21,817 nucleotides of DNA, taken from a candidate division WOR-3 bacterium (GTDB lineage: Bacteria > Hydrothermota > Hydrothermia > LBFQ01). The notes under the pieces were generated by a model. That model was not told the DNA's origin and did not search any database. It was given only the letters and a program-made list of their open reading frames with translations. Of the stretch, positions 2,248 through 21,722 are shown one piece after another (positions within the stretch are counted from its first letter, which is position 1; each line of letters begins with the position of its first letter). Position numbers and translations under genes: made by a program. The stretch is taken from NCBI GenBank assembly GCA_027050205.1, contig JALUCS010000001.1, positions 1-21,817 on the forward strand. Direction: 5' to 3'.

Positions 2248-2625
2248 GTGCTTCGCGTCCTGTGGGTGGGTTTGATAGTGCTGTTGCTCGGTTTAACCGT
2301 CATCCCCTACGTCGTACCTAAGGGTGGGAAGGGAAAGCGTAGTATCACGGACGAGAGGTTGGACGTCATCGTCCTAAACGGGACCAAGAGGAACCGTCTC
2401 GCCTACAGCGTCACCTGGTACCTCCGAAAGAAGGGTATAGACGTCCTCTACTACGGGAACGCCGACACCATATACGCCCAGACCCTGATAATAGACCGGA
2501 GGGACAGCATCTCCCTGTCCAACGCCAAAAAGGTCGCCCGCTACATCAAGGGTAAGCTCCTCTACCTCCCCGACACCGACAACCTTGCGTCGGTCTACGT
2601 AATACTCGGCTTAGACTACAGATGA
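2248..2625 (+). CDS. LytR C-terminal domain (LytR_C) protein with N-terminal membrane anchor
   Basis: VIVLNGTKRNRLA...LRKKGIDVLYYGNAD...VYVILGLDY matches the LytR_C pattern. Confidence 0.82.
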   Translation: MLRVLWVGLIVLLLGLTVIPYVVPKGGKGKRSITDERLDVIVLNGTKRNRLAYSVTWYLRKKGIDVLYYGNADTIYAQTLIIDRRDSISLSNAKKVARYIKGKLLYLPDTDNLASVYVILGLDYR

Positions 2626-4343
2626 TCCTCCTCCTCTCCTACACCTACGTCTTGGACGTAAAGGTGGTGGGGGCGAAGTTCTTCAAACCGTCCTTCATCA
2701 AGAAAGTCTTCGGGTACAGTCGGCCCTTCCTCGGCTTTGGCAAGTATATGCGGTACTCTCCGGCTCTCCTACGACACAGGGCCTTGCAGCTGGAACAGAT
2801 ATACAGGGACAGTGGCTTCTTTGACGTAAAGGTCAGGGTTAGGGACAGTACGGTAGGACGGAACCGGATAGTGATAGTTGAGGTTGAGGAGGGTCCGAGG
2901 TACGTCATACGCCGGGTAATAGCCCCTTCACCCTTCCTCCGCAGTATGAGGTTGAAGTTGCCTAGGCCCTACTCCGAGGCCTTCGTGTCTTACTTGGAGC
3001 TGGCCCTAACGGAATGGTACCAAGATAGGGGTTTTCCCTTCGCCGAAGTTAGCAGGGAACTGTACGCCGAGGATACCCTCTTGGATATAACCCTAAAGGT
3101 AGACTCCGGGCCGAGGGTCGCGATAAGGGGTGTGGCCTTCAAGGGTGCCAACGGAAAGGCCCTGACGACGCGGCGTAAGATCTTCTACCGGGAGGTGGTC
3201 GTGAAGCCCGGTGAGTGCTTCTCCATCTCCAAGATAAGGGAGAGCCTCTCCCGCCTCTACCGGACCCTACTCTTCACCAGCATAAGGTGGAAGTTGGAGG
3301 GTATGAGGAAAGCCCCCAAAGGAAGCTGTGGGGACTCCTCGGCCGTCCTCGTCTTCTACGTCAGGGAAGGAAGGCCGAAGATACTGGACCTCACCGTCGG
3401 TCTCCAGAGCGAGACGGACAGGCCCGTCCTCCTCAATGCCGAAACCTCCTTCCAGCACCTCAACCTCTTCAACAACCTCCAGCGGATCCAGCTCTCCGTC
3501 TCCACCCTCCTTGACCTGATGGAGCAACAGGTTCCTCGCTTCTCCTTCAACGTCATCTATCAGGAGCCTTACTTTCTGGATATGTACCTGCGGGCCAACT
3601 TCAGGGTGAAGGGGACGTACGACTCCGATAGATCTATGGAGCAACTCGGTTTCTACGGTGAGATAGTCAAACCCTACGTGTTAAACAGGGTGGAGGTAGC
3701 CTTCGGACCCTCCGTTGAGTTCCGCCGTACCTTCACGGATGGGGGGGAGAGCTACAGGCTCTTCAAGGTGTTTGAGAGGACGCACATAGACACGAGGGAC
3801 GACCTCTTTGACCCCTCCTGGGGGTCCGTGATAAACCTATACGCCGAGGAGGCCGGCTTGGGGTACGTAGGCGACTACGACTTCCTCAAGGGAACAGCAG
3901 AGGTCTCCGTATATCAGAAGTTCTTCCTTACGGAGTGGAAGTGGGCCGCCCGCGTAAAGGTGGGCAGAGTGGGCGCGGTCCTCCGCTCGGACACTCTACC
4001 CTTCTACGACCTCTTCACCCTCGGTGGGGAGGGTCAGGTGAGGGGGTACGACCGTTTCTCCATCGGCAGGGAGGTGAAGGACTGCAACGGACCCGTATGC
4101 CACGTAGGGACTTCCCTCGTCGTATTCAACTACGAGATAAGGCGGAGGATATGGAGGGAGATAGGGGGGGTGATCTTCTTTGACTTCGGATACCTCTCCA
4201 AGGATTACGGTTATTCGGCGGGACTCGGCCTCCGGTACTTCACCCCCATAGGTCCCATAAGGCTAGACTGGGGCCTGCGCCTAAAGGACAGGTCCCCCAC
4301 CGACCGGGGGAAGGTCTACTTGGGCATAGGGCATATGTTCTAG
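2622..4343 (+). CDS. Omp85 (BamA/TamA) family outer membrane protein
   Basis: POTRA-like segments (YRDSGFFDVKV, VEEGPRY, YQDRGFPFAEV), LGGEGQVRGY loop-6 motif, GLGLRYFTPIGPIRLDWG, terminal Phe. ATGA overlap with the upstream stop. Confidence 0.92.
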   Translation: MILLLSYTYVLDVKVVGAKFFKPSFIKKVFGYSRPFLGFGKYMRYSPALLRHRALQLEQIYRDSGFFDVKVRVRDSTVGRNRIVIVEVEEGPRYVIRRVIAPSPFLRSMRLKLPRPYSEAFVSYLELALTEWYQDRGFPFAEVSRELYAEDTLLDITLKVDSGPRVAIRGVAFKGANGKALTTRRKIFYREVVVKPGECFSISKIRESLSRLYRTLLFTSIRWKLEGMRKAPKGSCGDSSAVLVFYVREGRPKILDLTVGLQSETDRPVLLNAETSFQHLNLFNNLQRIQLSVSTLLDLMEQQVPRFSFNVIYQEPYFLDMYLRANFRVKGTYDSDRSMEQLGFYGEIVKPYVLNRVEVAFGPSVEFRRTFTDGGESYRLFKVFERTHIDTRDDLFDPSWGSVINLYAEEAGLGYVGDYDFLKGTAEVSVYQKFFLTEWKWAARVKVGRVGAVLRSDTLPFYDLFTLGGEGQVRGYDRFSIGREVKDCNGPVCHVGTSLVVFNYEIRRRIWREIGGVIFFDFGYLSKDYGYSAGLGLRYFTPIGPIRLDWGLRLKDRSPTDRGKVYLGIGHMF

Positions 4344-5233
4344 CCGAGGACCTTTTCAAAGGCGGAGCGAAGGGCGTAGGCGTTCAGGGGTTTCCGAACG
4401 TAGGCAAAGCGGGCAGGTTTGATGTCCTCCGTACCTACGAGGACTGTACGGGAGGCGAAGGGACCGAACAGGGAGTTCGCCCAGAGGAAGCCCTTGCCGT
4501 TGAGATCGGCGACGTAGAGGTCCATCCCCGGCTGCGGGTCCCCTCCCTCCACGAACTCCGGCGAGTATCCCATCCCCTTCAGGACTACCTCCACCGTCCT
4601 CTTAACCTCCTCGTCGTCGGCGAGGACATAGACCTTTACGGGCTTGGCCTCCTTCTCCTTCCTCTTTCCCTCCCTCTCAACGGCTAGGACGCCTTCGGCG
4701 ACGAGGCGGGAGACGAAGTAATCCACGGTGCTGCTTCGCAGCGACAGGCTCCTCTTCAGGTCGCCGAGGGTAGTACCCTTGACGAGTTCCCCCATAGACA
4801 GCAGTAGGAAGGCGGCGTCCAAGTTGTCCTTAACGCCCTTGGCCCTCTCCGGTATCAGCCTAAGGAAGTCCCCGTCGGTTAAACCCGTCCTCCTGTGGTT
4901 TATCTCGTCCCGTAGGGAGGAAACCCAGAGCATGAGCTGGTTGGCGTCAAAGCCGAGTATCTCCGGGATCTCAACGTTCTCCCCGTCAAGGTTCTCCATA
5001 AAGAAGGTTCCGTCCCGGCACTCCATTACCCCCATCAGGGTGTCCAAGACCTCAAGGATGTTTTCCAAGATCTCGCCGTTGCGCACTACGGAGACGACCC
5101 TGCCGTCCTGGAAGTAGAGCATAACCGTACCCATAGAAGGGCACTCCACCTCTATTACCCCCCTCCTGAAGGTCGCCGTGCTTATTAGGAGGGGGATGTC
5201 AAGGTCCCTTACGTCCCCCTGTACGGCCATCAC
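4340..5233 (-). CDS. DUF4388/PATAN domain protein with probable HTH and compact C-terminal receiver domain (PatA-like)
   Basis: N-term VQGDVRDLDIPLLI...GVIEV...LYFQDGRVV...DGTFF; C-term VYVLADDEE...DLYVAD...VLVGT...YVRKP. Confidence 0.7.
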   Translation of the reverse strand: MMAVQGDVRDLDIPLLISTATFRRGVIEVECPSMGTVMLYFQDGRVVSVVRNGEILENILEVLDTLMGVMECRDGTFFMENLDGENVEIPEILGFDANQLMLWVSSLRDEINHRRTGLTDGDFLRLIPERAKGVKDNLDAAFLLLSMGELVKGTTLGDLKRSLSLRSSTVDYFVSRLVAEGVLAVEREGKRKEKEAKPVKVYVLADDEEVKRTVEVVLKGMGYSPEFVEGGDPQPGMDLYVADLNGKGFLWANSLFGPFASRTVLVGTEDIKPARFAYVRKPLNAYALRSAFEKVLG

Positions 5234-6366
5234 CTCCTCCTTTTCTTCGTAAAGAGTACCGTATGGATCATCTGGTTAGCGTGGAAGTTCATTATCCTCC
5301 CGTTCACCGTCAGGCTCCCTTGCTCCCCGTAGGTGGCCGCCCCTACGAATGGGGCGCCCCGTACCATCCTCCTGTATATATCCGCTATCTCGTTCAACCT
5401 CCCCTTTATTGGGGCTATGCACCCGGCGCAGTATATCAGGATACCCCCCAAGACCTGTAGGTACTCGTCAAGGCTCTTCCGGACCGTTACGGCCGTCCGG
5501 GATACGAGGAAGCTGTCCGTCGCCGTGGCGTGATATATGGTCTCCCCCTCGTTTATGTGGGAGAGTACGAGGACGGCCTTCTCCCTCGGCAGCACCTCAA
5601 AGACGTGCGAGACGACTATGTCCTCCCCGAACTTACGGGCTATGGGGTTCAGGCCGGCTATCTCAAAGGGTATTATGCCCCCGCGCTTTACGACGTCGGA
5701 TATGTCAAAACCCCTCTCCTTCAGCCAGGAGGCATACACCTCAACGGCCGGCTTACCGTCTATCTCGTATACCACCGTCCCCCCCGTCTCCGGATGGAAC
5801 ACCTTGGTCACCTTACCGTGCCTCCTGGTGAGCATATACCCGGCGTGGAAGGTTGAGAGGATGGGGTTCTTGGACTTGAAGGCCACCACAACCACACCGG
5901 AGTTGGTCTTCCTACCGTTGGTGAAGGTCCACCAATCGCCGGAGAAGTCGTTGTCGGCCGCAGTGCCGCCGAATATCCTGACCTTGGATCTGAAGGCGTC
6001 GTCTAAGGTCCTCACCACCGCCTCCTCAAGGCCGAGGGTGGGGAATATCATAAGTAGGCTGGGGATCTCCATCTCCTTCTTTATGGCAGACGCTATCTCC
6101 CTCACAGGCTCAACGATGGTCCTAACGTTGCCCTCGGCGAAGTATGCCTTTGCCTCTACCCCATCGCCCTCCTCGGCGACGAGCAGGTACGTACCCTTCA
6201 CATAGCCCTCCGATGTGAAGACACCACCGTGGGAGGTTATACCGAAGACGGTGAAGGGGAGGGATACGAGCCTATCAACTTCGGAGGAATCGCTGGTAAA
6301 AGCCAGCGCCCATCGGACCCTGGCCCTATCAATTTCATCCAACCTCTTTAGGGGGATTGAGAGCAT
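5230..6366 (-). CDS. FIST N/C domain sensory protein (NosP-like)
   Basis: IFGGTAAD, VYEIDGKPAVEVY, LIYCAGC, GAATYGEQ and FHANQM are FIST motifs. Start reassigned from 6537 to the ATG at 6366, which avoids overlap with the divergent gene and follows a TATAAT. Confidence 0.88.
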   Translation of the reverse strand: MLSIPLKRLDEIDRARVRWALAFTSDSSEVDRLVSLPFTVFGITSHGGVFTSEGYVKGTYLLVAEEGDGVEAKAYFAEGNVRTIVEPVREIASAIKKEMEIPSLLMIFPTLGLEEAVVRTLDDAFRSKVRIFGGTAADNDFSGDWWTFTNGRKTNSGVVVVAFKSKNPILSTFHAGYMLTRRHGKVTKVFHPETGGTVVYEIDGKPAVEVYASWLKERGFDISDVVKRGGIIPFEIAGLNPIARKFGEDIVVSHVFEVLPREKAVLVLSHINEGETIYHATATDSFLVSRTAVTVRKSLDEYLQVLGGILIYCAGCIAPIKGRLNEIADIYRRMVRGAPFVGAATYGEQGSLTVNGRIMNFHANQMIHTVLFTKKRRR

Positions 6367-6423
6367 ACGCCTTCTATTATAACGCCGGAAAATCCAACGG
6401 TGTCCAACGGTAAAATAGTCTCC
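6367..6423. promoter_or_regulatory. Compact divergent promoter with back-to-back -10 boxes and a tandem TCCAACGG repeat
   Basis: TATAAT on minus (6376-6381), TAAAAT on plus (6411-6416), tccaacgg at 6393-6400 and 6403-6410. Confidence 0.6.
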
Positions 6424-7293
6424 ATGCTTTCGCTCCTTTCCGGCCTGCCCGTTTTCGTCTCCCCCGACGACTTTGGCAAGGTTAGGCCCAAGGTGGTCAT
6501 AGACGTGAGGGATCCGCAGGAGTACGCCGAGGCCCACATACCGGGGGCCGTTAGTTTCCCGGTGGATGCCTTCCTACGGGCGGTGGATAGCGTACCCTTC
6601 CATATGCCTGGATTTGACACCCTCGTGGATAAGATAGCCTCCTTGGGAGTGAGGCAGGGGGAGAGCGTCCTGATATACTCCTCGGCCAGACTGACCTTCC
6701 ACTACCTGAACGCCGCCGCCCTCTATATGGTACTCAAGTACCTCGGCTTTAAGAAGGTCTACGTCCTCAACGGTGGGTTTGAGGCGTGGGAGGAGGCGGG
6801 AAAGCCCACGAGCAACCGCCGGGGACTCCGGGGAAGGATACGCCTCAAGGCCCGGGCCGACAGCACCTTCATAATCACCATTAACGACCTCCTTGACAGT
6901 ACAGGGAACGTCCGTAAGGACGTACACCTCGTGGATGTGAGGCTCCCGGCCTACTACTTCGGCGTAATAGCCCCTCCCTTCTACACCCGCAGGGGACACG
7001 TACCGGGGGCCACCTCCCTGCCCTTCAACTTCTTCTTCAAGACGGTCAGGGGAAAGAAGGGTACGTACTACGTCTTGGCAGATACCGCCCTCATAGACAG
7101 TATCCTAAAGCCCAACCTCTCCCCCATCAAGCTTAACGTCTTCTACGGCAACACGCCGAGGGAAGCCGCCTTCTTCCTCCTGCTTTTGGACTACGTAGGG
7201 TACCCCAGGGAGAGGTACAGGCTCTACCTGAACGGCTTTCCGGAGTGGAGCCGCAGGGAGGAGCTACCCGTGGTAAGGTACAGGTGGGAGTGA
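6424..7293 (+). CDS. Tandem-domain rhodanese/sulfurtransferase-like protein lacking the catalytic Cys
   Basis: IDVR..EY...HIPGA, VLNGGFEAW, LVDVR...GHVPGA, LYLNGFPEWS. Start reassigned to ATG 6424 (TAAAAT 7 nt upstream). Confidence 0.85.
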   Translation: MLSLLSGLPVFVSPDDFGKVRPKVVIDVRDPQEYAEAHIPGAVSFPVDAFLRAVDSVPFHMPGFDTLVDKIASLGVRQGESVLIYSSARLTFHYLNAAALYMVLKYLGFKKVYVLNGGFEAWEEAGKPTSNRRGLRGRIRLKARADSTFIITINDLLDSTGNVRKDVHLVDVRLPAYYFGVIAPPFYTRRGHVPGATSLPFNFFFKTVRGKKGTYYVLADTALIDSILKPNLSPIKLNVFYGNTPREAAFFLLLLDYVGYPRERYRLYLNGFPEWSRREELPVVRYRWE

Positions 7294-7298
7294 GAATT

Positions 7299-8084
7299 AT
7301 GAAGAGGATGACCGTAAAGAAACTGGCGGAGCTTAAGGGGAAACGCCCCATAGCAGCCATAACGGCCTACGATTACACCTCCGCCCTCCTCGCCGACGCC
7401 GCCGGTTTTGACCTCGTCCTCGTAGGGGATTCCGCCGCGATGGTGATACACGGGTACGAAAGTACCCTACCCATAGGGATGGAGGAGATGCTGATGCACA
7501 CGAGGGTGGTGGCCCGCACAGTAAAGAGGGCCTTGGTGGTGGCCGACATGCCCTTTATGAGCTATCAGCCCTCACAGGAGGAGGCGATACGGAACGCCGG
7601 GAAGTTCATGAAGCTCGGAGCCTCCGCCGTCAAGGTGGAAGGGGGCAGGGAGGTGGCGGAGTTGGTCGCCCGTCTCGTATCCTACGGCATCCCCGTTATG
7701 GGCCACATAGGTATGAACCCCCAGAAGTTCAACGTCTACGGTGGATTCAAACTCCAAGGTAGGGACAAGGAGGAACTCCTGAAGGACGCCCTCGCCCTAC
7801 AGGATGCCGGGGCCTTCGCCGTAGTCTTGGAGAAGGTCCCCACCGAGAGCGCCCGGTACGTCACGGAGAGGATAAGGATACCGACGATAGGTATAGGGGC
7901 CGGACCCCACACGGACGGACAGATACTGGTTTTCCACGACGTCCTCGGCCTCATCCCCGGAATGGAGTTCAAGTTCGTGAGGAGGTACTTAAACGGCTTC
8001 TCCATCCTTAAGGAGGCCCTTGAGAGGTTCAAAGAGGACGTCCTGAACGGCCGCTTCCCCTCCCCCGAGGAGAGCTACGAATGA
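7299..8084 (+). CDS. panB: 3-methyl-2-oxobutanoate hydroxymethyltransferase
   Basis: ITAYDY, LVGDSAAM, VADMPFMSY, AVKVEGG, PVMGHIG, IGIGAGPHTDGQILV. Start at ATG 7299 after GGAG. Confidence 0.97.
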   Translation: MKRMTVKKLAELKGKRPIAAITAYDYTSALLADAAGFDLVLVGDSAAMVIHGYESTLPIGMEEMLMHTRVVARTVKRALVVADMPFMSYQPSQEEAIRNAGKFMKLGASAVKVEGGREVAELVARLVSYGIPVMGHIGMNPQKFNVYGGFKLQGRDKEELLKDALALQDAGAFAVVLEKVPTESARYVTERIRIPTIGIGAGPHTDGQILVFHDVLGLIPGMEFKFVRRYLNGFSILKEALERFKEDVLNGRFPSPEESYE

Positions 8085-8527
8085 GACTCCTCTACAGGCT
8101 CCTGGCCACCGGTCTGTTCGTCGGCTACGTTCCCTTGGCACCCGCCACCTTCGGTAGCCTGTGGGCAATACCCCTCGTCCTCCTCACCGGCACCTATGGC
8201 ATAGACTACTGGATAACGGCGGCTGCCCTCGTCGTAGTGGGGGTAGTGGCGGCGGATAGGGTGGCGGAGGAGGTGGGAGAGAGGGACCCGTCGGAGGTGG
8301 TTATAGACGAGATAGCCGCCCTGTACCTCGCCTACGCCACCTTCCCCATAAAGTGGAAGGTCCTCCTCCTCGGATTCCTCCTCTTCCGTATCTACGATGT
8401 GCTTAAACCCTTCCCCGCCCGGAGGCTTGAGTCCCTACCCGGAGGCCTTGGGATAGTGGCGGACGACCTCGTAGCAGGGGCCTACACGTGGATAACGGTC
8501 AAGGTACTTTTGAGGTTCCTGGTGTAG
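8081..8527 (+). CDS. pgpA: Phosphatidylglycerophosphatase A
   Basis: GYVPLAPATFGSL, DPSEVVIDE, LFRIYDVLKPFP, GGLGIVADDLVAG. Confidence 0.93.
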   Translation: MRLLYRLLATGLFVGYVPLAPATFGSLWAIPLVLLTGTYGIDYWITAAALVVVGVVAADRVAEEVGERDPSEVVIDEIAALYLAYATFPIKWKVLLLGFLLFRIYDVLKPFPARRLESLPGGLGIVADDLVAGAYTWITVKVLLRFLV

Positions 8528-8531
8528 AGCC

Positions 8532-9848
8532 TCACTTCACCTCCCGGAACTCCCCCCTTATCATAGGGTTCCCGCTCTGCATCCTGGCGTACTTCTCAAC
8601 GTCCACTTTGGGCTTAACCCTTGGGGGAACCCGCAGAGAGAAGGGCCTCATGGCCGGCCTCTTGTCCTCTATGGACTTTGGTATCAGGGAGGGAAGGACC
8701 TTCTCCGAGAGGTCCATTATCTGGACGAGGGGGCTGCGGATGAGGACCATCAGGGCCGGGACCCTCGTGGATACGACGGAGAAGAGCTTCACCGGGCGGA
8801 AGGAAACGTCCCCCACACCGTCCCTGTTCAGGTCGTACCCCTTATAGGTACTCCAGTAGTTCCCGCTGATGTCGTTGAAGCTGGAGAAGTTGTTCGTGGT
8901 GAGGTCAAAGGTGTTCCCGATGATGTTGTTGTGGGTTATGACGTTGTCCGTGGAGTTGGCCCACAGGCGGATGGCTATGCCGTTCTCCTCTAAGATGTTG
9001 TCATATATTTTGTTCCTCACGGAACCCTCAAGGTAGAAGCCGTAGGTGTTGCGGTATAGGTAGTTCCCGTAAAGTTCGCTATCGTATATCTCCTTGAGGA
9101 GGAAGCCGAAGGTCGCCCCTCCCCAGTGATGCTCAAACCGGTTGTACCGCACTACCATATGTTTGGAGTACATGACGGCCGCCCCCACACCGTTATCCAC
9201 GAAGGTGTTGTACTCAAAGGTGTCCCTCTCCGAGAACATGAAGTGCATCGCATAACGCACGTTTTTGGTTGAGTAGTTGTGGCGAAACATGGAGTTGGTG
9301 ACGAACTCAAGGTATATCCCGTCCCTGTGGCCCTGAAGGTGGTTGTTCTCCACCAACATACTATCGCAGTTCCACATATGGATGGCGTTCCCGGTGGTCG
9401 TCTCCACCTTCGCGAACCCCACGACGACGTTGTCCCTTACCACCCCCCTCTTGGACTTCTCGTAGTATATCGCCCAGAAGTTGTCCCAGAATTCGCTGTC
9501 CTCCACCCTGCAGCCGTCGCACCGTGTTATCTTGACGGCCGCGATGTCCCTGTTCATACTCCACCCGCTGTTCTTGAAGACGAAACCCCTGATAAGTACG
9601 CTGTCGGCATCAACTACGTGAAACATCTGGTACTTGTACTCGCCGTCAATTACGGGTTTCCCGATTCCTATGAGGGATATGCGGCTCTTATTGATTACGA
9701 TCTCACCTTCACGGTAGGTTCCAGATTTTACGAAGATGGTATCCCCAGGTTCCGCATCCTCCAGAGCTGACTTTATGCTCTTGTAAGTGCAACCCCCATC
9801 GCAGACGCTGACGCTTGTAGCAAACAGGAATAAAGCGGGCACAGACAT
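8532..9848 (-). CDS. nosD: Nitrous oxide reductase maturation protein NosD
   Basis: Parallel beta-helix repeats, GNAIHMW, GHRDGIYLEF, RYAMHFMFS, AAVMYS, GNYWSTYKGYDLNRDGVGD; nos context. Confidence 0.95.
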   Translation of the reverse strand: MSVPALFLFATSVSVCDGGCTYKSIKSALEDAEPGDTIFVKSGTYREGEIVINKSRISLIGIGKPVIDGEYKYQMFHVVDADSVLIRGFVFKNSGWSMNRDIAAVKITRCDGCRVEDSEFWDNFWAIYYEKSKRGVVRDNVVVGFAKVETTTGNAIHMWNCDSMLVENNHLQGHRDGIYLEFVTNSMFRHNYSTKNVRYAMHFMFSERDTFEYNTFVDNGVGAAVMYSKHMVVRYNRFEHHWGGATFGFLLKEIYDSELYGNYLYRNTYGFYLEGSVRNKIYDNILEENGIAIRLWANSTDNVITHNNIIGNTFDLTTNNFSSFNDISGNYWSTYKGYDLNRDGVGDVSFRPVKLFSVVSTRVPALMVLIRSPLVQIMDLSEKVLPSLIPKSIEDKRPAMRPFSLRVPPRVKPKVDVEKYARMQSGNPMIRGEFREVK

Positions 9849-9854
9849 GGTGCA

Positions 9855-10358
9855 TCATTTCATCTGCATCTGGTGGTCGTGTCCCCCCTGCATGGGCATG
9901 GGGTTCTGCTTCCGTACCTGATCCATCACCTGCGCCCAGTTGAGGACCTCGCCCCCGTTCTCCTTTATAAAGGCCTCGGCATCCTCTACGCTCTCAAAGG
10001 CAGCCACGTCGGAGGCCATAGGGCTGTGGATCTTGTCGCTCTGGACGTATATGGCCCTCGTGGCGTCTATGAGCTTACCGGGGTGGGCGTAGTCTACGAC
10101 CAGGAAGAAGGCCACGTCCTTTTCGGTCAGGTTGGGGTCGTTCCAGAAGTGGTTTATCATACAGGCAACGTCGTCGTACTTGTAGACCCGTCCCTTCTTG
10201 GTGACCAGCTCCGCCCCGAAGCGTTTGTCGGTTATGGTCATCTTGCACCAGTAGCAGGCGTCCTTCCCGAACTCTATGGGGACGGGCTTGGGCTTCGGCT
10301 TACAGCCGGTGGTAAGGACGGCGACACCGAGGATAAGGAGCAGGGCGAGCCTCCTCAT
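9855..10358 (-). CDS. nosL: Copper chaperone lipoprotein NosL
   Basis: Lipobox TTGC, DACYWCKMTI, YKYDDVACM, HSPMAS. ATG 10358 has SD AAGGAG; alternative GTG at 10367. Confidence 0.93.
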   Translation of the reverse strand: MRRLALLLILGVAVLTTGCKPKPKPVPIEFGKDACYWCKMTITDKRFGAELVTKKGRVYKYDDVACMINHFWNDPNLTEKDVAFFLVVDYAHPGKLIDATRAIYVQSDKIHSPMASDVAAFESVEDAEAFIKENGGEVLNWAQVMDQVRKQNPMPMQGGHDHQMQMK

Positions 10359-10363
10359 AACCT

Positions 10364-10927
10364 TCACTCCTTTACGTACAGCCAGTCAAGGATGATAACC
10401 AAGAAGACGAGGACACCGGCGATTATGGCGAACCAGCCGCCTATGTCGGGCATGGACCACACGGTGAAGTTCAGGAGGACCTTCTTACCGATGAGGGGAG
10501 GGGTGAAGGGGTCTATCCTCAGGGCGGCGTTGGGGTCCAGGTCGTGTCCGTAGTGATACAGCCACTTGTAGAAGTCGGCCATGGCTATGATGCCGAAGGC
10601 GGCGTAGAGGATGAACCAGGACCAGATGAGCTTGCGGTTGTACCATACAGCGAGGATGATGGCGGTTATGGCGAAGAACCAGAAGACGATGGGCAGGATG
10701 GTGAATTCGGGTATGTGCTTGGGGAGGGGGTGCATCCCAACGTAGTGGTTGAGGTCGTCTATGATCTTCTTCTGCTGGGGGTCTCCCCAACCGTGGGTGA
10801 GGATGATCAGACGCAGGCCCTCCGGGTACTGGGGGGCTATCAGGTCTATGTACCACAGCCGTACGAAGTTGACGGCTGCGAGGAGCAGACCCGATACGAA
10901 CAGGAGGATGCGGTTAAGCGTTTTCAT
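10364..10927 (-). CDS. nosB: NosB-like membrane protein of clade II nos clusters
   Basis: LWYIDLIAPQYPEGL, LNHYVGM, WLYHYGHDLDPNA, PPLIGKKVLLNF; immediately downstream of nosZ. Confidence 0.85.
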   Translation of the reverse strand: MKTLNRILLFVSGLLLAAVNFVRLWYIDLIAPQYPEGLRLIILTHGWGDPQQKKIIDDLNHYVGMHPLPKHIPEFTILPIVFWFFAITAIILAVWYNRKLIWSWFILYAAFGIIAMADFYKWLYHYGHDLDPNAALRIDPFTPPLIGKKVLLNFTVWSMPDIGGWFAIIAGVLVFLVIILDWLYVKE

Positions 10928-10977
10928 GGCTTATCTCCTTCCTAATATTTTCCCCGACAATATCTGTCAGGATTCCT

Positions 10978-11005
10978 AAAAAAGCGGGGGGGCTTCCGCC
11001 CCCCC
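10978..11005 (-). terminator. Rho-independent terminator between nosZ and nosB
   Basis: Minus strand GGGGGGGC-GGAA-GCCCCCCC followed by GCTTTTTT, 14 nt after the nosZ stop. Confidence 0.85.
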
Positions 11006-11019
11006 TTACCTCTGTCGCG

Positions 11020-13020
11020 TTACAGGTCTTTGTCAAGGCCCCACTTGAGAGGCACGTTGGAGCCTTTAGGCGAGACGCGCACGTACCCCTGCATCTCCTG
11101 GTGCAGGGCGGAACAGAAGTCTGTGCAGTAGTACGGATAGACGCCGGGCTCCTTGGGTACCCACCTGATGGTGAGGGTCTGACCGGGCATTATGAGCATG
11201 TTGGGCTCGGGCGCACCGAAGATGGCGAAGCCGTGCGGGATGTCCCAATCCTGCTCTATGTTCGTGACGTGGAAGTAGACGGTGTCGCCCACCTTTATAC
11301 CCTCAATGTTGTCGGGGTTGAAGTGGGACCTGATGGCCGTCATGTAGACGTGGACGACGTTGCCCTTGCGCTCAACGCGGGTCTCGTTCTCGCTCTTGAC
11401 GGCGTAGGGGTGCTGGTTCTCCTCAAGCTTGTAAATCTTGACCACCTTGTCCTTTATGAGGTCGGCGGGGAGAGCCTGGGCGTAGTGAGGCTCACCTATG
11501 GTGGCGAAGTCAAGGAGCATCTCCATCTTCTCACCCGTTATGTCTATGAGCTGGGCGGACTGGTTGAGCTCCGGACCGACGGGCAGGTACCTGTCCTTGG
11601 TTATCTTGTTGAGTGCCACCACGTACTTGCCGAAGGGCTTACGGGAGTCTCCACCGGGTATCATGAGGTGTCCAACGGAGTAGTAGACGGGTATACGGTC
11701 CACGACCTCACACTTCTCTATGTCGGTCTTGATGATCTCGGAGGAGATGAAGCAGGAGGTATAGACGAAGCCCTTGCCGTCAAACTCGTTGTGCAGGGGA
11801 CCTATGCAGGCCTTGGGTACCAGACAGTGGTTCACGGCCTCAAACTTCAGGACCGGGATACCGTCTATGACCTTCTCAACCTCGTTGTTCTCTATGGCCT
11901 TCATCATCTTGGAGAAGGAGTGGATGGGCAGGTCGGCGGAGAGCTTACCACCGGCTATGATGTACTCACCCGTGGGGTCTACGTCCACGCCGTGCGGGGA
12001 CTTGGGCGTAGGCAGGTAGTAGGCCACACCCTCACACTCGGTGGGGAGTATGACCTTGACCTTGTCCCCGACCTTGGAGAAGGCCATGTGCTTCTTGTCG
12101 TCGTAGTAGTTGTGGTAGTACTTGGCGGGGAACTCGTGATACTTACCCTCCTGCAGGCACTGCTCGGCCTTCTTCCAGTTGACGGCGAGGATGTAGTCCT
12201 TGTCGTGCTGGGAGGCGTTCTTCTCAAGCAGGGTGTGGGCCTGCTCGGTGTTGTAGGAGGTGAAGAAGCACCAGCCGTGGCTGGGCCCCTTACCGCAGTG
12301 GCCGAGGTCGTAGTCGTAGCCGGGAACGAGGAGCTGGAAGGCTATGTCCATCTTGTCCTCACCCTCGTAGTTAGGGTCGTTGTTCACCTTGATGAAGGTG
12401 ATGGTTCCCTTGAACTCCTTGGCGTAGTCCTTAATGGGTACGTCCTTGAACTTACCGGTCTGGATGTCTATGGGTACGGAGAAACGGGTACCGGCCGTGA
12501 CGTACTCGGTGTTCATGGTTATGAAGGTGGAGGGGTGGTTACCGGCGCTGTTGGGTATCTCTATGATCTCACGGGTCTCCATTGTGGCCAGATCTATACG
12601 GGCGACACGGGGGGTGTTGTTGGCGTTGATGAAGATCCAGCGGCCGTCCACCTCACCGTTCGTCTGGGAGAGCTCGGGGTGGTGGGTATCGTCCCAAGGT
12701 ATGAAGCCGTGGGACGTCATGAGCATAGCCTTGGTCTCCTCGGTGTAGCCGTAGCCGTTGCGAGGGAATACGGAGAAGACGGGAATTATCTTGAGGAGCC
12801 TACCGGAGGGGAGACCGTAGACCATCAGCTGGCCGTTGAACCCTCCGGAGAAGAAGGCGTAGAACTCATCGTACTCACCCGGTGCCACGTATACCTTCTC
12901 CGCGGCCGAAGAGGCACCGGTCTTTGCCGCGCCCTTCTCCTTGGGCGGACACCCCATAAAGAGGGCGCCCACGCCTATCGCTCCTATCACTCCTGCGAGA
13001 ATCAGGGTACGCCTGTTCAT
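11020..13020 (-). CDS. nosZ: Nitrous oxide reductase, clade II (Sec-type), no C-terminal heme c domain
   Basis: FFSGGFNGQ, CuZ His motifs (WDDTHH, AGNH, KSPHG, GPLH, VGH, GEPH), CuA motif YCTDFCSALHQEM; SD AAGGAGGT. Confidence 0.98.
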   Translation of the reverse strand: MNRRTLILAGVIGAIGVGALFMGCPPKEKGAAKTGASSAAEKVYVAPGEYDEFYAFFSGGFNGQLMVYGLPSGRLLKIIPVFSVFPRNGYGYTEETKAMLMTSHGFIPWDDTHHPELSQTNGEVDGRWIFINANNTPRVARIDLATMETREIIEIPNSAGNHPSTFITMNTEYVTAGTRFSVPIDIQTGKFKDVPIKDYAKEFKGTITFIKVNNDPNYEGEDKMDIAFQLLVPGYDYDLGHCGKGPSHGWCFFTSYNTEQAHTLLEKNASQHDKDYILAVNWKKAEQCLQEGKYHEFPAKYYHNYYDDKKHMAFSKVGDKVKVILPTECEGVAYYLPTPKSPHGVDVDPTGEYIIAGGKLSADLPIHSFSKMMKAIENNEVEKVIDGIPVLKFEAVNHCLVPKACIGPLHNEFDGKGFVYTSCFISSEIIKTDIEKCEVVDRIPVYYSVGHLMIPGGDSRKPFGKYVVALNKITKDRYLPVGPELNQSAQLIDITGEKMEMLLDFATIGEPHYAQALPADLIKDKVVKIYKLEENQHPYAVKSENETRVERKGNVVHVYMTAIRSHFNPDNIEGIKVGDTVYFHVTNIEQDWDIPHGFAIFGAPEPNMLIMPGQTLTIRWVPKEPGVYPYYCTDFCSALHQEMQGYVRVSPKGSNVPLKWGLDKDL

Positions 13021-13032
13021 AAATACCTCCTT

Positions 13033-13545
13033 TTAGTTCTTCTTTTCCTTTGCAGCCTTCCTCAAGAACTCAAGTATGGCCCTCGCCTCGTCCTTGCTCA
13101 CGTTCTGGTTGGTCATGGGTACGCCGTACTCCTCAAGGAGCTTCTGGGCCACCGGGTCCTTGAGGATCATCTCATCCGGGTTCATTATCATGTTCATTAT
13201 CCACTCCGGGGGCCTCTGGTCGGTTACACCACGAAGGGGAGGGCCGACCTTCTTCTTGTCCAGCTCGTGGCAGGCGGTACAGCCCTTCTTGTCAAACAGC
13301 TCCTGCCCCTTCTTGGCCAGGGCCTCGTCTATGGTCTCGGGGAGGTTCAGAGGCTCCTGTATGGGACCGACCCCGAACTCGCTGACCTGCTCGCTCTGGG
13401 CGGTGGCCTGCGTTTGCTCAACCGTGGCCGTCTGCTGGGCCTTCTGCTCCGTGGTGTTGCTTGAACTTTCGGACTTCTTCCCCCCACCGCACCCTACGAC
13501 GAGGAGGATGGGCAGGAGATACATCGGAAGACGCTTCATAACCAT
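13033..13545 (-). CDS. Monoheme cytochrome c lipoprotein, probable NosZ electron donor
   Basis: Lipobox VVGC, low-complexity linker, CTACH heme motif, VGPPL, EWIMNMIMNP, distal Met (VPMTNQ). Confidence 0.92.
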   Translation of the reverse strand: MVMKRLPMYLLPILLVVGCGGGKKSESSSNTTEQKAQQTATVEQTQATAQSEQVSEFGVGPIQEPLNLPETIDEALAKKGQELFDKKGCTACHELDKKKVGPPLRGVTDQRPPEWIMNMIMNPDEMILKDPVAQKLLEEYGVPMTNQNVSKDEARAILEFLRKAAKEKKN

Positions 13546-13751
13546 AGGACGGTATTATACGACGGTATCAATTCCTTGTGGGGGTACGATGATGCAAAAG
13601 GTTTTTCAGGTTTTCCATAAAAAACTGCCATCCGGCGGACAGGCAAGGTGCATATACATAAGTTTTTACACTTAAATGACACATAAACACTGTACGAACG
13701 CCGTTTTGCATAACCTCTTAGTATAAGGACGCGTCCTTAAAATCACGGGCT
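13546..13751. promoter_or_regulatory. Divergent nos promoter region with two -10 boxes and a perfect 16-bp palindrome
   Basis: TATAAT minus strand 13554-13559; TAAAAT plus strand 13738-13743; TAAGGACGCGTCCTTA at 13724-13739. Confidence 0.6.
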
Positions 13752-14207
13752 ATGTTGAAGAGAGTTCTCGGTGTGTTGCTCCTGGGAGCGGTGGTAGTGG
13801 CGGTCTCCGGTTGCAACAGGGGTAAGGAGGAGACGACCTCTATGAACAGAGGGATCACCCTCCCTACGAAGGACAGGGGTCCGTATCCGGAGGAGAAAAT
13901 AACAGTTCCCCGCTACCCCGGAGCCGTTGTTGAGAACTACGAGGAGGTCTTCGCCCCCGGAGGCAAGGACGTGTCCTTCGTCCGGGTCTACCTGAACACC
14001 AAGGACCCGTACGAGAAGGTGCGGGATTTCTACAAGAAGGCCTTCAGGGACAGGTACGGCGAGCCTACGGAGGAAGGGGAAGAGAGAGGTATATACCACG
14101 TTATGAAGGCGAAGGGGAAGGGGTACGCCCCCTACTTCCAGATAGAGGTCACGGACCTCGGAGACTACCGCAGGGTTGTTATAACCCGCGCCGACGAGAA
14201 CAAGTAG
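13752..14207 (+). CDS. Hypothetical lipoprotein
   Basis: MLKR + hydrophobic stretch + VSGC lipobox; VPRYPGA...TKDPYEKVRDFYK pattern. Confidence 0.8.
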   Translation: MLKRVLGVLLLGAVVVAVSGCNRGKEETTSMNRGITLPTKDRGPYPEEKITVPRYPGAVVENYEEVFAPGGKDVSFVRVYLNTKDPYEKVRDFYKKAFRDRYGEPTEEGEERGIYHVMKAKGKGYAPYFQIEVTDLGDYRRVVITRADENK

Positions 14208-14230
14208 GCCCACCGTAGAATAGGCGGAAG

Positions 14231-14956
14231 TTGGAGAGCATAGTCGTAGAGGACCTGCACAAGCGGTTTGGAAAGAATTACGTACTCAAGGGCATAAACC
14301 TGAAGGTCAGGAGCGGTGAGATAACGGCCATCCTCGGTCCCAACGCCTCCGGTAAGACCACCCTCATCAAGTGCATCCTCGGTCTCGTCATCCCCAACAG
14401 GGGGAAGATAACCGTAATGGGGGAGGATGCGCGGAAAGGGGTGGAGTACCGCCGGTTCATAGGCTACATGCCCCAGATAGCCCGCTTCCCCGAAAACCTG
14501 ACCGTCTCCGAACTCCTGAATCTGGTCAAGGACATCCGCTCCCAACCGGCGGACGAGGGGAGGTACCTGGACCTCTTCGGCCTCCACAAGTTCTTGAATA
14601 CGCCCCTTGGCGTCCTCTCCGGTGGCACCCGGCAGAAGGTGAACGCCACCCTGGCCTTTATGTTTGACAACTCCATATACATCTTGGACGAGCCGACGGT
14701 GGGGTTTGACCCGCTGGCCAGCACAAACTTTAAGGACGAGCTTCTCCGCCTGAAGGGGAAGGGTAAGAGCATCGTCTTCACCTCCCACATAATGAGCGAG
14801 GTTGAGGAGCTGGCGGACCGCGTCGTCTTCCTCCTCGGCGGCGTGATACACTTTGACGGAACCCCCTCCCAGTTCAAGGAGCAGACGGGGGAGAGTACGC
14901 TTGAGAGGGCCATAGCCAGACTCATGAAGGAGGCGGGAGTTGAGAACGGCGTTTAA
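14231..14956 (+). CDS. nosF: ABC transporter ATP-binding protein NosF
   Basis: Walker A GPNASGKT, IGYMPQIARFPENLTV, LSGGTRQKV, ILDEPT, TSH; next to nosY. Confidence 0.9.
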   Translation: MESIVVEDLHKRFGKNYVLKGINLKVRSGEITAILGPNASGKTTLIKCILGLVIPNRGKITVMGEDARKGVEYRRFIGYMPQIARFPENLTVSELLNLVKDIRSQPADEGRYLDLFGLHKFLNTPLGVLSGGTRQKVNATLAFMFDNSIYILDEPTVGFDPLASTNFKDELLRLKGKGKSIVFTSHIMSEVEELADRVVFLLGGVIHFDGTPSQFKEQTGESTLERAIARLMKEAGVENGV

Positions 14957-15719
14957 GCTCTTCAAGTACGAGGCATACAACACCGTAAGGAGCCGATTCA
15001 TCATCGGATACTTCCTCTTCTTCCTCCTGCTCACCTCCGCCCTCTCCTACTTCAGCAGCGACGTCTCCAAGGTGATAGTTAGCCTCCTCAACCTTGTGAT
15101 CCTCTTCGTCCCCCTCATATCTCTGGTCTTCTCCTCCCTCTTCTTCTACGGGACGAGGGAGTTTACGGAGCTTATGCTCGTGCAACCCGTAGGCAGGGGT
15201 ACGGTCTTCCTGAGTAAGGTGGCGGGCATCTCCGTCCCCCTAGCCCTCGCCGTTGGGGTAGGTATAGGCCTGCCCCTCTTCTTGTTCGGCGCTCCCGTTG
15301 TCCACGTCATCCTCCTCACCCTCTCGGCCATGTACCTGACCCTCATCTTCTCCGCCATAGCCCTGATGTTCTCCGTGATGTACGACGACCGGGTGAAGGG
15401 GTTGGCCCTCGGCCTGGGCTTCTGGATATACGCCAGCATAATCTACGACGCCCTCATCCTATACATCGGGATGACCTTCTACGACTACCCGATTGAGGGC
15501 CTCATAATCCTCCTCTCCGTCCTCAACCCCGTAGACCTCGCCCGGATACTGATAGTGATGAACCTGGATATAGCCGCCCTGATGGGATACACGGGGGCGC
15601 TCTTTACGAAGTTCGTCTCCTCCCTCAAGGGCTACGTCGTAATAATCACCAGCCTGACCCTCTGGATAGCCATCCCCGTACTGGTGGGGACCCTGCTGTT
15701 CAGGAGGAAGGACTTCTAA
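14940..15719 (+). CDS. nosY: ABC transporter permease NosY
   Basis: REFTELMLVQP, DYPIE, LNPVDLARILI..LDIAALMGYTGALF, terminal RRKDF. Confidence 0.9.
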   Translation: MRTAFKLFKYEAYNTVRSRFIIGYFLFFLLLTSALSYFSSDVSKVIVSLLNLVILFVPLISLVFSSLFFYGTREFTELMLVQPVGRGTVFLSKVAGISVPLALAVGVGIGLPLFLFGAPVVHVILLTLSAMYLTLIFSAIALMFSVMYDDRVKGLALGLGFWIYASIIYDALILYIGMTFYDYPIEGLIILLSVLNPVDLARILIVMNLDIAALMGYTGALFTKFVSSLKGYVVIITSLTLWIAIPVLVGTLLFRRKDF

Positions 15720-15745
15720 CCTAAAACCGCCCGTAAAATTCCCTT

Positions 15746-16342
15746 ATGCTCTGGTTGGTCTCTTTTATGGACGTCTCCTTCGGGGCTGGTTTGCGGGTTC
15801 CCCTTGAGGACTACGCGCACTACGCCGGGTACGGCATGAGCGGGAACGTGGACTTCAGGTACTTCTTCACGGAGAGGTTCGGCATCGGTATAGCAGCAGG
15901 CGGCGCCTACCACTTCCAGAGGAGGTTCGCCGACTCCATAGGGGGGATATGGGCCAAACAAACGACGCAGGTGACGGCTTTCCCCGTATCCCTGAACGTG
16001 GTTATGAGCTTCTACCTCGCCGAAGGGGTGGACCTCCTCGTCTCCCTCGGAGGCGGTGGGAACTACGCCCTCTACAACTACGAGCGGAGGGTGGGGATAT
16101 ACGACAGTACGGCCAGGAAGTGGGACGTACGGGAGGACAAAGGCTCGTACAAGGTGGGGGGCTACATCGTGAACTTTGAGTCGGCTGTGAGAATGACGGA
16201 CTTTGACGTATTTCTGGGGGTGCATCTGATGCAGACGGAACTTAACAGGGTGGATATGCTGACGGGTAAGGGGATGGTGGAGAAGGCTTCTTACCCCGTC
16301 CTCTACGTCGGTGTGAGGCACTTCATCCTCTTCGGCATATGA
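15746..16342 (+). CDS. Probable small outer membrane beta-barrel protein
   Basis: Alternating aromatic/Gly beta strands (VDFRYFFTERFGIGIAAG, FPVSLNV, LGGGGNY, VLYVGVRHF); 198 aa; coupled to the lptD-like gene. Confidence 0.62.
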   Translation: MLWLVSFMDVSFGAGLRVPLEDYAHYAGYGMSGNVDFRYFFTERFGIGIAAGGAYHFQRRFADSIGGIWAKQTTQVTAFPVSLNVVMSFYLAEGVDLLVSLGGGGNYALYNYERRVGIYDSTARKWDVREDKGSYKVGGYIVNFESAVRMTDFDVFLGVHLMQTELNRVDMLTGKGMVEKASYPVLYVGVRHFILFGI

Positions 16343-18441
16343 TACCCCTTCTCCTCGCGGAGGTAGTGTTCCGGGGAGGCTACCTTGAGTACTTCCCGGA
16401 CAGCGGTCTCGTACTCCTCTACGACAGTGCCTACGTTAAAACCTCCGAGGGGACGGAGCTGTGGGCGGACACCGTAAAGTACTGGAGGTGGGCGAACGTC
16501 GTTGAGGCCTCCGGGGGCTTCGTCCTAAAGACCACCGAGACGAAGATAACGGGGCGGTACCTCAAGTACAACCTTGACAGGCAGACGGGTATAGCCACCC
16601 GGAGCCGCACCTTCGTAGAGAAGGGCTGGATAGTGGGGGATACGGTCTATAAGGTGTCCGAAAACTCCATATTCACCTACAACGGGTACTTCACCACGTG
16701 CGAACTCCCCAGACCCCACTACCGTTTCGTCTCCCGCACAATGAGGGTGGTCAAGGGAGACCTCGCCGTCGTCAGGCCGCTTATCTTATACATACGGGAC
16801 ATCCCCGTCCTCTACGCCCCCTTCTGGTTCATGCCGGCGGGCAAGGAGAGGTCTTCGGGCTTCCTCCCCCCCTCCATCGGGAACAGCACGCGGGACGGCC
16901 TATACATCCGGAACCTCGCCTTTTACTTCGCTATAAACAACTTTCAGGACATAACCCTCTTCGCCGACATCATCCAAAAGCGTGGGGTGAGGTTCGGTGC
17001 GGATTACCGCTACAACGTCTATAAGACCCTGAAGGGTGGTTTTACGGGGACGTACGCCTACGACCTCGCCGAAGGGGGGAACGTCAGGAGGTGGAGCCTC
17101 AAGGGGGATCACAGCCAGGGCCTCTTCGGTTTTGACCTGACCGCCCACGCCGACTTCGTCTCCGACTCTCGCTACTTTCAGGACTACGCCGAGGTGCCGG
17201 ATCAGTGGGTCCAGAGCGAGTTGGTGTCCTACCTGACCCTGCGGCGCACCTTCGCCTTCGGCCTCCTCTCCACCAACCTATACAACCGCTACGACCCCGT
17301 CAGGAACATCACCCGCAGGACCCTCCCGGAGGTATCCCTGACCCTCCTCCCCATCACCCGGTTCGGCCTCTCCCTATCCAACTCCTTCAACCTCCGGAGG
17401 GAGGTGATAGACTCGGTGGGAAACAGGAGGGAGAGCCGGGAGATGACGACCTCCCACTCCTTAAACACCACCTACACCCTCTTCCACTTCACCCTATCCC
17501 CCAACCTATACCTCAACACCCGCGCCAGGGATACAGTGGGCGGCGGGGTACTCTTCGGAAAGAAGTACGGCTTTTCCCTACCCCTCTCAACCACCCTCTA
17601 CGGGATATCCCTCTTCGGCCTCGGTCCGGCCGAGAAGTTCCGCCACATAATGAAGCCCACATTAGCTTACTACTACGAGAACGCCCCCGACAGCCTCTTC
17701 GGTGCCTACGGCGAGAGGAAGGGCCTGACCTTCTCCCTTGACAACACCCACGAGGCCCGCATAAGACGGGATACGGTGAAGGAGGTCAAGACCCTCCTCC
17801 AGTGGAGCCTCTCTACCAGCTACGTCTTCTCCGACAGTCTCTCTGGACGCCCCTTTACCGAGCATCTGACCCCTCCCACCTTTATGGCAAGGACCTCACC
17901 TGCCCGGTGGATGAGCATAACGGCCTACGGCACCTACGACCACCTAAAGGGGAGGCTCTCCTCCGGACAGGTCATCCTCAACCTCGGCCGCTTCAACCTG
18001 AACGAGCTACTCAAGGGGAAGGTGGGGGTGAGGGACACCGCGGACACCCTCAAGGGGGACACGACGGCGAAGGACACCACCCTTAAGGAGGAGGATCTCC
18101 TTGAGGCCAACAAGCCTAAACCCTCCCCCTGGACCTTCGGCCTATCCTACTCCTACTCCCTGACGGCCTACGGCCAGCCCCCTCTAAGTACGGTGCGCTT
18201 TGGCATATCCGGAAGCCCCACCCCCTACTGGTTCATAGACTACTCCTTTACCTACGACCTGACCAACCGGAGGTATCTGGATCAGAGCCTTAGCGTGGCG
18301 AGGGACCTGCACTGCTGGAAACTTGAGGCCCGCTGGTCGTGGTTCGGCGGGTACTCCACCTACGACGTGCGGATATTCGTCAAGGCCATACCGGAGATAG
18401 CCATAAAGCGTGGCGTTCTGGACATCTTCCTGCCGAAGTAG
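16339..18441 (+). CDS. lptD: Putative LPS assembly protein LptD
   Basis: OstA-like N-terminus, FTTCELPRPHY, RSSGFLPPSIG, long beta-barrel, RDLHCWK near the C-terminus. Confidence 0.85.
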   Translation: MIPLLLAEVVFRGGYLEYFPDSGLVLLYDSAYVKTSEGTELWADTVKYWRWANVVEASGGFVLKTTETKITGRYLKYNLDRQTGIATRSRTFVEKGWIVGDTVYKVSENSIFTYNGYFTTCELPRPHYRFVSRTMRVVKGDLAVVRPLILYIRDIPVLYAPFWFMPAGKERSSGFLPPSIGNSTRDGLYIRNLAFYFAINNFQDITLFADIIQKRGVRFGADYRYNVYKTLKGGFTGTYAYDLAEGGNVRRWSLKGDHSQGLFGFDLTAHADFVSDSRYFQDYAEVPDQWVQSELVSYLTLRRTFAFGLLSTNLYNRYDPVRNITRRTLPEVSLTLLPITRFGLSLSNSFNLRREVIDSVGNRRESREMTTSHSLNTTYTLFHFTLSPNLYLNTRARDTVGGGVLFGKKYGFSLPLSTTLYGISLFGLGPAEKFRHIMKPTLAYYYENAPDSLFGAYGERKGLTFSLDNTHEARIRRDTVKEVKTLLQWSLSTSYVFSDSLSGRPFTEHLTPPTFMARTSPARWMSITAYGTYDHLKGRLSSGQVILNLGRFNLNELLKGKVGVRDTADTLKGDTTAKDTTLKEEDLLEANKPKPSPWTFGLSYSYSLTAYGQPPLSTVRFGISGSPTPYWFIDYSFTYDLTNRRYLDQSLSVARDLHCWKLEARWSWFGGYSTYDVRIFVKAIPEIAIKRGVLDIFLPK

Positions 18442-18479
18442 GCGCCGGATCCATCCATCGCTTGAGGTTGCACGACGCC

Positions 18480-21365: not shown

Positions 21366-21722
21366 ATGAGGATCAGGATAGCGCTTTCTGTCCTTGTTCT
21401 CGCGCTTGTCGGCTGGGCGGGTTGTAGGAACCTGCCGACTTCTCCCGAGGCTAAGGACGTCCTCAACACCCTCTCCGTTTCCCCGGACAGTACTCCGCAT
21501 CTCCAGAGCGGGTACATCTACTGGATCAACGTTGCCTGGGGATTCGTAGAGAGGTATAGGAACTGGAGGTGCGGGGTTGAATCCTGGTTCCCTTTCCGGT
21601 ACAGGTACCGTTACAGGTACTGGCTGACGATAAGAACGGAAGATTACCAGTTCGACTGGTATCATGTTATCAAAAACTGGTTTATAGATGTATGCTTTGT
21701 CCAAAAAGTGAGGGGGTGGTAG
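21366..21722 (+). CDS. Hypothetical W/Y/R-rich lipoprotein, probably truncated by IS insertion
   Basis: MRIR + hydrophobic stretch + WAGC lipobox; the last ~9 codons run through the putative IS end. Confidence 0.6.
   Translation: MRIRIALSVLVLALVGWAGCRNLPTSPEAKDVLNTLSVSPDSTPHLQSGYIYWINVAWGFVERYRNWRCGVESWFPFRYRYRYRYWLTIRTEDYQFDWYHVIKNWFIDVCFVQKVRGW

Follow-up and report, generated by a model that had tools for sequence, protein, structure and literature searches.

The question raised by the first 21,817 nucleotides of contig JALUCS010000001.1 (assembly GCA_027050205.1, a candidate division WOR-3 bacterium), hereafter the window, is whether proteins can be exported behind N-terminal leaders of only 6 to 10 uncharged residues, as is predicted for five of its gene products: an Omp85-family protein, a tandem rhodanese, NosD, a small outer-membrane beta-barrel and LptD. 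A preliminary description of the window had claimed an ultra-short, non-canonical leader for all non-lipoprotein exported proteins of the lineage, lipoproteins being exempt. Analyses of the assembly (2.05 Mb, 135 contigs, 93.5% complete) and of its relatives indicated that the short export leaders are real, genome-wide and conserved; the lineage-wide leader and the exemption of lipoproteins were borne out, while universal use was not. As judged from the sequences, what is new appears to be a variant of the Sec/signal peptidase I (SPase I) signal with candidate translocon changes, instead of the undescribed system that had been envisaged.

Inspection of the window located the five N-termini, and the features that anchor their start codons, where the preliminary description had placed them (Table 1): ATGA overlaps at 2622 and 16339, a TAAAAT box in front of both the rhodanese and the barrel gene, and a gap of 6 nt between nosL and nosD. 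No upstream in-frame ATG, GTG or TTG was found for Omp85, LptD, the barrel or NosD, while the rhodanese has a GTG at 6400, and in-frame stops lie 3 codons before the barrel ATG (15746) and 2 codons before the NosD ATG (9848). None of the five leaders contains a lysine or an arginine, so that the twin arginines of a Tat signal are absent, and none ends at the cysteine of a Sec/signal peptidase II lipobox. A TatC gene is present in the genome, and two of its short open reading frames begin with RRxFL-type motifs. Family matches bear out the identities of the Omp85 protein, LptD, NosD and the rhodanese, and in the Omp85 protein the POTRA match begins at residue 9. The barrel showed similarity to Atlas outer-membrane beta-barrel clusters at 0.97, its sole Pfam match being below cut-off, and a sigma-70 scan requiring a -35 element returned 0 sites for the box at 15734-15739. 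Outside the close group the rhodanese had no homolog at E<=1e-25.

Table 1. Predicted short leaders, putative promoter boxes and lipoprotein signals in the window.
Feature	Position	Strand	Remark
MILLLS, predicted 6-residue leader of Omp85-family, TamA-sized protein (gene 2622-4343)	2622..2639	+	inferred cleavage site
TAAAAT, -10-like box, 7 nt before rhodanese ATG; transcript likely leaderless	6411..6416	+	sequence and congeners
MLSLLSG, predicted 7-residue leader of tandem rhodanese (gene 6424-7293)	6424..6444	+	uncharged, hydrophobic; putative export
MSVPALFLFA, predicted 10-residue leader of NosD (gene 8532-9848)	9819..9848	-	TIGR04247 above cut-off
Ordinary lipoprotein signal of NosL, Cys19	10302..10358	-	
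Ordinary lipoprotein signal of Sec-type (clade II) NosZ, Cys24	12949..13020	-	TIGR04246 above cut-off
Ordinary lipoprotein signal of cytochrome c, Cys17	13489..13539	-	
Ordinary lipoprotein signal, Cys21, protein without Pfam match	13752..13814	+	
TAAAAT, -10-like box, 6 nt before barrel ATG; transcript likely leaderless	15734..15739	+	sequence and congeners
MLWLVS, predicted 6-residue leader of small outer-membrane beta-barrel (gene 15746-16342)	15746..15763	+	
MIPLLLA, predicted 7-residue leader of LptD (gene 16339-18441)	16339..16359	+	LptD_2 match
Ordinary but short lipoprotein signal, Cys14, protein without Pfam match	19219..19260	+	
Ordinary lipoprotein signal, Cys20, protein without Pfam match	21366..21425	+	

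Candidate division WOR-3 and Candidatus Hydrothermota are the names attached to SecY relatives at 54-59% identity. Closer relatives of NosD and BamA bear the NCBI label 'Thermotogae bacterium', which we read as a former name of the EM3 group; the WOR-3 class of this genome is likely Hydrothermia. Comparison with these relatives revealed that the same Omp85 start and a leader of the 6-7-residue type occur in all ten full-length family members, none with an upstream start; in three of them a stop codon immediately precedes the ATG. An eleventh gene is split. The LptD leaders were of 6-7 residues in 11/11 family relatives, and the upstream TTG found in two of these leads into charged sequence. 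The barrel leader was shared by 6/6 congeners, each with TAAAAT 7 nt upstream, while no such gene was found next to lptD in 5 sister-genus genomes. An uncharged hydrophobic leader of the rhodanese was present in 5/5 congeners with TAAAAT or TAGAAT 6-7 nt upstream in every case; the GTG at 6400 is not conserved, one congener having a stop 3 codons upstream and another an upstream TTG. The 10-residue NosD leader recurred in five close homologs, a sixth being truncated, and leaves 14 residues before the aligned anchor versus a median of 26 in 114 homologs of other groups, 101 of which have a lysine or arginine within the first 8 residues. The nearest named NosD homolog outside the group, from Persephonella (49%), carries a canonical signal, and the NosD leader may therefore have shrunk after acquisition of the gene.

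Our own gene calls gave 1765 genes of at least 80 residues, and a strict pattern for a short uncharged hydrophobic start without a later membrane helix selected 194 of them, including BamA, Skp, YajC and SurA-like, TolC-like, LolA-like and DsbA-like proteins. At residues 2-6 of these leaders L, I, V, F, M or W make up 66-91%, partly by construction of the class, and the hydrophobic core comprises 5-8 residues. An independent set, chosen regardless of the N-termini, consisted of 106 proteins with the C-terminal domain of the type IX secretion system (T9SS), recognised by a profile built from the C-termini of such proteins. When the first in-frame ATG was the only rule, a short leader was found in 70 of these 106 T9SS-tail proteins versus 4 of 136 motif-picked controls, and two of those four are themselves exported proteins; the 70 short leaders are free of lysine and arginine. 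A classifier that considered three starts returned 72 short, 26 canonical and 8 without a leader, with about 7 short ones miscalled canonical when judged by eye. The claim that all non-lipoprotein exported proteins use short leaders was thus contradicted by canonical signals in about 20 of the 106 proteins by eye and in 26 automatically. The membrane protein YajC (L129:6829-7149, minus strand) has Gln-Gln behind its short leader, a hint that short leaders also serve N-out membrane proteins in a cell lacking the signal recognition particle (SRP).

If the starts were miscalled, upstream non-ATG starts or frameshifts could supply ordinary signals: the GTG at 6400 would give the rhodanese a lysine-bearing n-region, and at least 8 codons are open upstream in 111 of the 194 genes. 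Only 2 of these 111 have a hydrophobic upstream frame, while an in-frame stop lies within 7 codons in the other 83, the ATG is conserved across species whose upstream frames differ, and -10 boxes located 6-9 nt before the ATG would leave no upstream transcript. Furthermore, a -10 box or Shine-Dalgarno (SD) site precedes 60 of the 70 first-ATG short T9SS-tail genes versus 24 of 567 internal ATGs. Given the stops and -10 boxes, longer hidden signals upstream are very unlikely, and we regard miscalled starts as an exceedingly improbable explanation. A count of 170/194 'anchored' starts was discarded as circular, since the start picker rewarded -10 boxes and SD sites, and the first-ATG rule was used instead. 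About 750 of the 1765 called genes have the motif TAnAAT 5-10 nt ahead of their start, a count inflated by the start picker although the first-ATG test agrees, and this suggests that leaderless mRNAs are very frequent in the genome.

Analysis of the leader ends pointed to a probable cleavage site. Glutamine occurs within residues 6-11 of 53 of the 194 leaders (9% expected, p 7e-14), mostly at position 8, and is preceded by alanine or serine in 37 of the 53 (background 13%), with leucine at -3 in 31 and L, I or V in 39. The leaders followed by glutamine after A, S, G or T number 42 and measure 6-9 residues, 29 of them being 7 long. L-x-[AG]-Gln is also a common ending among the canonical signals of this genome, and in pairs of paralogs, one with a canonical and one with a short leader, the alignment begins at about the same mature start. 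Alignment with homologs, which the preliminary description had recommended for locating mature starts, gave a consistent answer, as the canonical homologs of BamA and NosD put the mature start at the end of the stub; in BamA the Gln-Val-like mature start of long-signal relatives directly follows the stub in short-leader ones. These sequence patterns make it likely that the stub is cut by LepB after L-x-[A/S/G]. The SPase I rule quoted in PMC3509430 permits leucine at -3, and glutamine following the SPase I cut has been described in Bacteroidetes and Ignavibacterium (PMC5837995).

On the contrary, the six lipoproteins of the window have the ordinary signals ascribed to them previously, with lysine or arginine, a hydrophobic stretch and a lipobox whose cysteine lies at position 14-24. 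Genome-wide, lysine or arginine is found among the first 6 residues in 79 of 84 genes with the lipoprotein pattern. Lgt and LspA require a membrane-anchored helix, which is likely the reason why lipoproteins retain the basic, longer signal.

The distribution of the trait was followed across WOR-3. BamA leaders were of 7-14 residues in all 21 genomes of the class sampled and free of lysine and arginine in 18 (by eye). Uncharged T9SS-tail leaders of about 10-15 residues, counted in chosen regions of five other genomes with fragments left out, amounted to 7/14 in a genome of the same class and to 3/13, 2/14, 3/14 and 0/10 in the others. The short-leader trait is a gradient across WOR-3 that is most extreme in this order.

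Ffh had been recommended for inspection too; the Ffh/FtsY (SRP54) domain was found in 0 of 57 genomes of the class versus 156 of 169 other WOR-3 genomes. The RF00169 SRP RNA was also found in 0/57 class genomes, though this model missed a Bacteroides control as well, and ffh was not beside rpsP in this genome. The WOR-3 families f37-f42, f16 and f24 seem to lack Ffh/FtsY yet keep canonical signals, and five genomes have a single weaker SRP54-domain match. The distribution of the SRP54 domain would fit an explanation in which the short leaders result from loss of SRP, there being without Ffh no need for, or tolerance of, long hydrophobic signals. However, among 29 SRP-positive genomes outside the class the BamA leader, judged by eye, is short and uncharged in 17, canonical in 10 and unclear in 2, and it is canonical in 11/11 out-of-class genomes without a two-hit SRP54 result; one genome of this latter kind is that with only 3/13 uncharged T9SS-tail leaders; and the genome under study keeps long signals on its lipoproteins and some cargo. 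SRP loss as the cause was therefore rejected on the distribution of BamA leaders and is considered highly improbable.

The preliminary description had further implied an altered export machinery, and the outcome differed between components: class-specific SecY substitutions and the absence of an Ffh/FtsY domain agreed with it, while a visible alteration of SecA or LepB recognition was not supported. The genome has one LepB, SecY, YidC and TatC as well as a peptide deformylase, and motif matches indicate Fmt, LspA and MAP. Crude motif patterns for SecG, SecD and trigger factor had no match in the genome, which is no proof of absence. LepB is single per genome in most relatives, and in a pairwise alignment to Escherichia coli the surroundings of its catalytic serine and lysine align without oddity. 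Similarly, no SecA column convincingly separates 29 short-leader from 14 long-leader genomes, the best columns either matching E. coli in the short group or varying widely; one row of this comparison (G030) was in a wrong frame. The SecA of the class mostly lacks the C-terminal zinc-binding motif (kept in 1/17 correctly read class rows) and often has a tail rich in lysine and arginine.

Alignment of SecY with the E. coli chains in PDB, which is ungapped, revealed serine at Ile195, aspartate at Ala197 and arginine at Ser405, while the pore-ring isoleucines 82, 86, 191, 278 and 408 are unchanged. Position 195 is serine in 17 and threonine in 14 of the 31 class genomes; in 28 other WOR-3 genomes it is cysteine, alanine or valine in 16 and isoleucine in 12, and in 79/79 scored outgroup SecYs, mostly FCB-related and chosen by similarity to the query, it is isoleucine or valine. 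Arginine at 405 was found in 31/31 class genomes versus 0/28 other WOR-3 genomes and 0/78 outgroups, and in 42 of 45 close database homologs; two close homologs have methionine at 405 and keep Thr195 and Asp197. That Asp197 contacts Arg405 is a guess. In E. coli, substitutions at Ile195, Gly402, Gly403 and Ile408 give superactive translocons, transmembrane helix 10 (TM10) being a hotspot, and I195S raises translocation by 2.16 log2 units (PMC13537251, data S1). Serine at Ile195 thus occupies a site known to raise translocation, as in prl-type SecY, and prl mutations allow passage of defective or absent signals (PMC5963308).

Taken together, we consider it reasonably probable that the stub is a minimal Sec/SPase I signal which SecA brings to SecY without SRP, which moves in the lateral gate and which LepB cuts. 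The segment bound by SPase I in an extended conformation is about seven residues long. Most soluble and outer-membrane proteins predicted to be exported in this lineage begin with methionine and 5-9 uncharged hydrophobic residues, where other bacteria have a signal of 16-30 residues, and under this proposal the stub is a signal peptide that has likely shrunk to little more than the part read by SPase I. SecA likely carries the preprotein to SecY without SRP and would recognise it largely via the mature domain; without a charged n-region, the stub may slide in the lateral gate until L-x-[A/S] reaches the LepB site. The weakest step is that a SecY with serine at Ile195 and arginine at Ser405 might proofread signals less strictly, which we hold with somewhat less than even confidence. 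More tentative still is the broader picture of a naturally prl-like Sec system in Hydrothermia, combining absence of SRP, SecY I195S/T and an arginine under the pore ring with seven-residue signals; if true, targeting would rest on the mature domain, and a long basic signal would mainly mark proteins for lipidation or anchoring.

Several observations weigh against the minimal-signal proposal. A stub of 6-7 residues cannot cross the membrane as a helix and is far below the E. coli minimum of 15-16 residues given in PMC5963308. As regards the cut, 141 of the 194 leaders lack the glutamine marker and many run into hydrophobic mature residues, which makes the site ambiguous, and PF05096 glutaminyl cyclase was not found in the 93.5% complete genome, where two M28 matches are present. 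As regards SecY, the I195S value comes from two replicates with a normal proOmpA signal (p 0.085), the gain with I195T and I195C was no more than +0.63 and +0.70 log2, and S405 was absent from that mutant library (PMC13537251). Families f33-f35 combine short BamA leaders with Ile195 and Ser405, families f15, f17, f23 and f24 combine Cys195 with long BamA leaders, and Arg405 is absent from all short-leader families outside the class. The class forms one clade on a quick SecY tree, so that class-wide counts amount to about one event, and the acid at SecY 197 was dropped as a special feature because outgroups have an acid there too. Finally SecA, even as a fragment, was not found in this assembly. 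It is present in 39/40 relatives and in 6/6 congeners, three of these broken at contig ends, and its absence is likely an assembly gap. In congeners secA adjoins arrays of multi-copy paralogous genes (the loci concerned being L113 and L115 and, in this genome, C97, C104 and C122), and such arrays may explain assembly breaks at secA.

The shortness of the stub and the 141 leaders without glutamine would also suit a different reading, in which the stub is not an SPase I substrate but traverses SecY with the chain by means of mature-domain signals, as in prl mutants, and is kept or later trimmed by a periplasmic peptidase; mature-domain targeting and export without a signal are known (PMC5963308). 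This we judge unlikely, given that alanine or serine precedes the glutamine in a pattern with Leu at -3 shared by the canonical signals of the genome, and that the stub ends at the predicted cut position of canonical homologs. An unrecognised translocase or leader peptidase dedicated to short-leader proteins could be invoked because the leaders break two of three textbook rules and because the coexistence of short and canonical signals in one genome would fit two routes. Yet most relatives encode one LepB, and the two kinds of leader share a cleavage pattern and are exchanged between paralogs, which makes a separate route quite improbable, although no search aimed at class-specific membrane proteins of unknown function was made.

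Comparison of the proposed minimal Sec/SPase I signal with the canonical one revealed a common ground plan: a leucine-rich N-terminal stretch on periplasmic, outer-membrane and T9SS-tail proteins, a small residue at -1 and an aliphatic one at -3, with LepB and SecY in this genome and SecA in relatives. The hydrophobic core and the -3/-1 motif are present, while the basic n-region and a length of about 15 residues are absent. The leaders measure 6-10 residues (mode 7 where marked by glutamine) against an E. coli median of 22 and minimum of 15-16 (PMC5963308), and the h- and c-regions form one stretch. The Q-rule of Bacteroidetes (PMC5837995) is resembled in that glutamine is enriched immediately behind the predicted SPase I site and that T9SS-tail proteins abound in the organism; however, glutamine marks no majority of the leaders here versus over 60% in Porphyromonas gingivalis according to that source, no PF05096 cyclase was found in the genome, and the leaders have one third of the customary length. 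With E. coli prlA and superactive SecY the natural SecY shares serine at Ile195 and a charged residue within the TM10 hotspot G402-I408; the former are laboratory mutants, I195S having been assayed with a normal signal, while the pore-ring isoleucines are intact here. Lineage-specific motifs such as LxS in Spirochaetes are documented in a proteomic survey of non-AxA signal peptides (PMC3509430), which required 15-35 residues and early basic residues and excluded such leaders by design.

No description of such short leaders was found in a literature search that covered only a minority of subscription papers; the word 'signal' occurs 0 times in the main text of the WOR-3 papers PMC12285271 and PMC12542636, and PMC8082313 contributed nothing on the subject. 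The minimal signal need of Sec and the role of the n-region have been probed so far mostly with E. coli mutants. Here is a lineage, belonging to a class without SRP, in which some seven uncharged residues appear to serve for the export of BamA, LptD, Skp and the greater part of the secreted cargo. Much of the secretome of the group would escape rules that demand a basic start and at least 15 residues. Direct testing would be possible with the natural pairs of short-leader and canonical paralogs, the two candidate SecY residues, the cell-free SecYEG assay of PMC13537251 and strain sy37, a member of Hydrothermia that is in culture (PMC12285271; class per PMC12542636).

Two stretches of the window carry no called gene: about 600 nt of lower-GC DNA after a 108-residue open reading frame (1286-1612) with a seven-residue, coiled-coil-like repeat and no Pfam match, and about 780 nt at 18442-19218, with GC near 47%, between lptD and the lipoprotein gene at 19219. 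The region 8532-15719 is a clade II nitrous-oxide reductase cluster with lipoprotein-type Sec NosZ, cytochrome c, a membrane protein, NosL and NosD, and an ABC ATPase and a permease, likely NosF and NosY, are encoded on the other strand.

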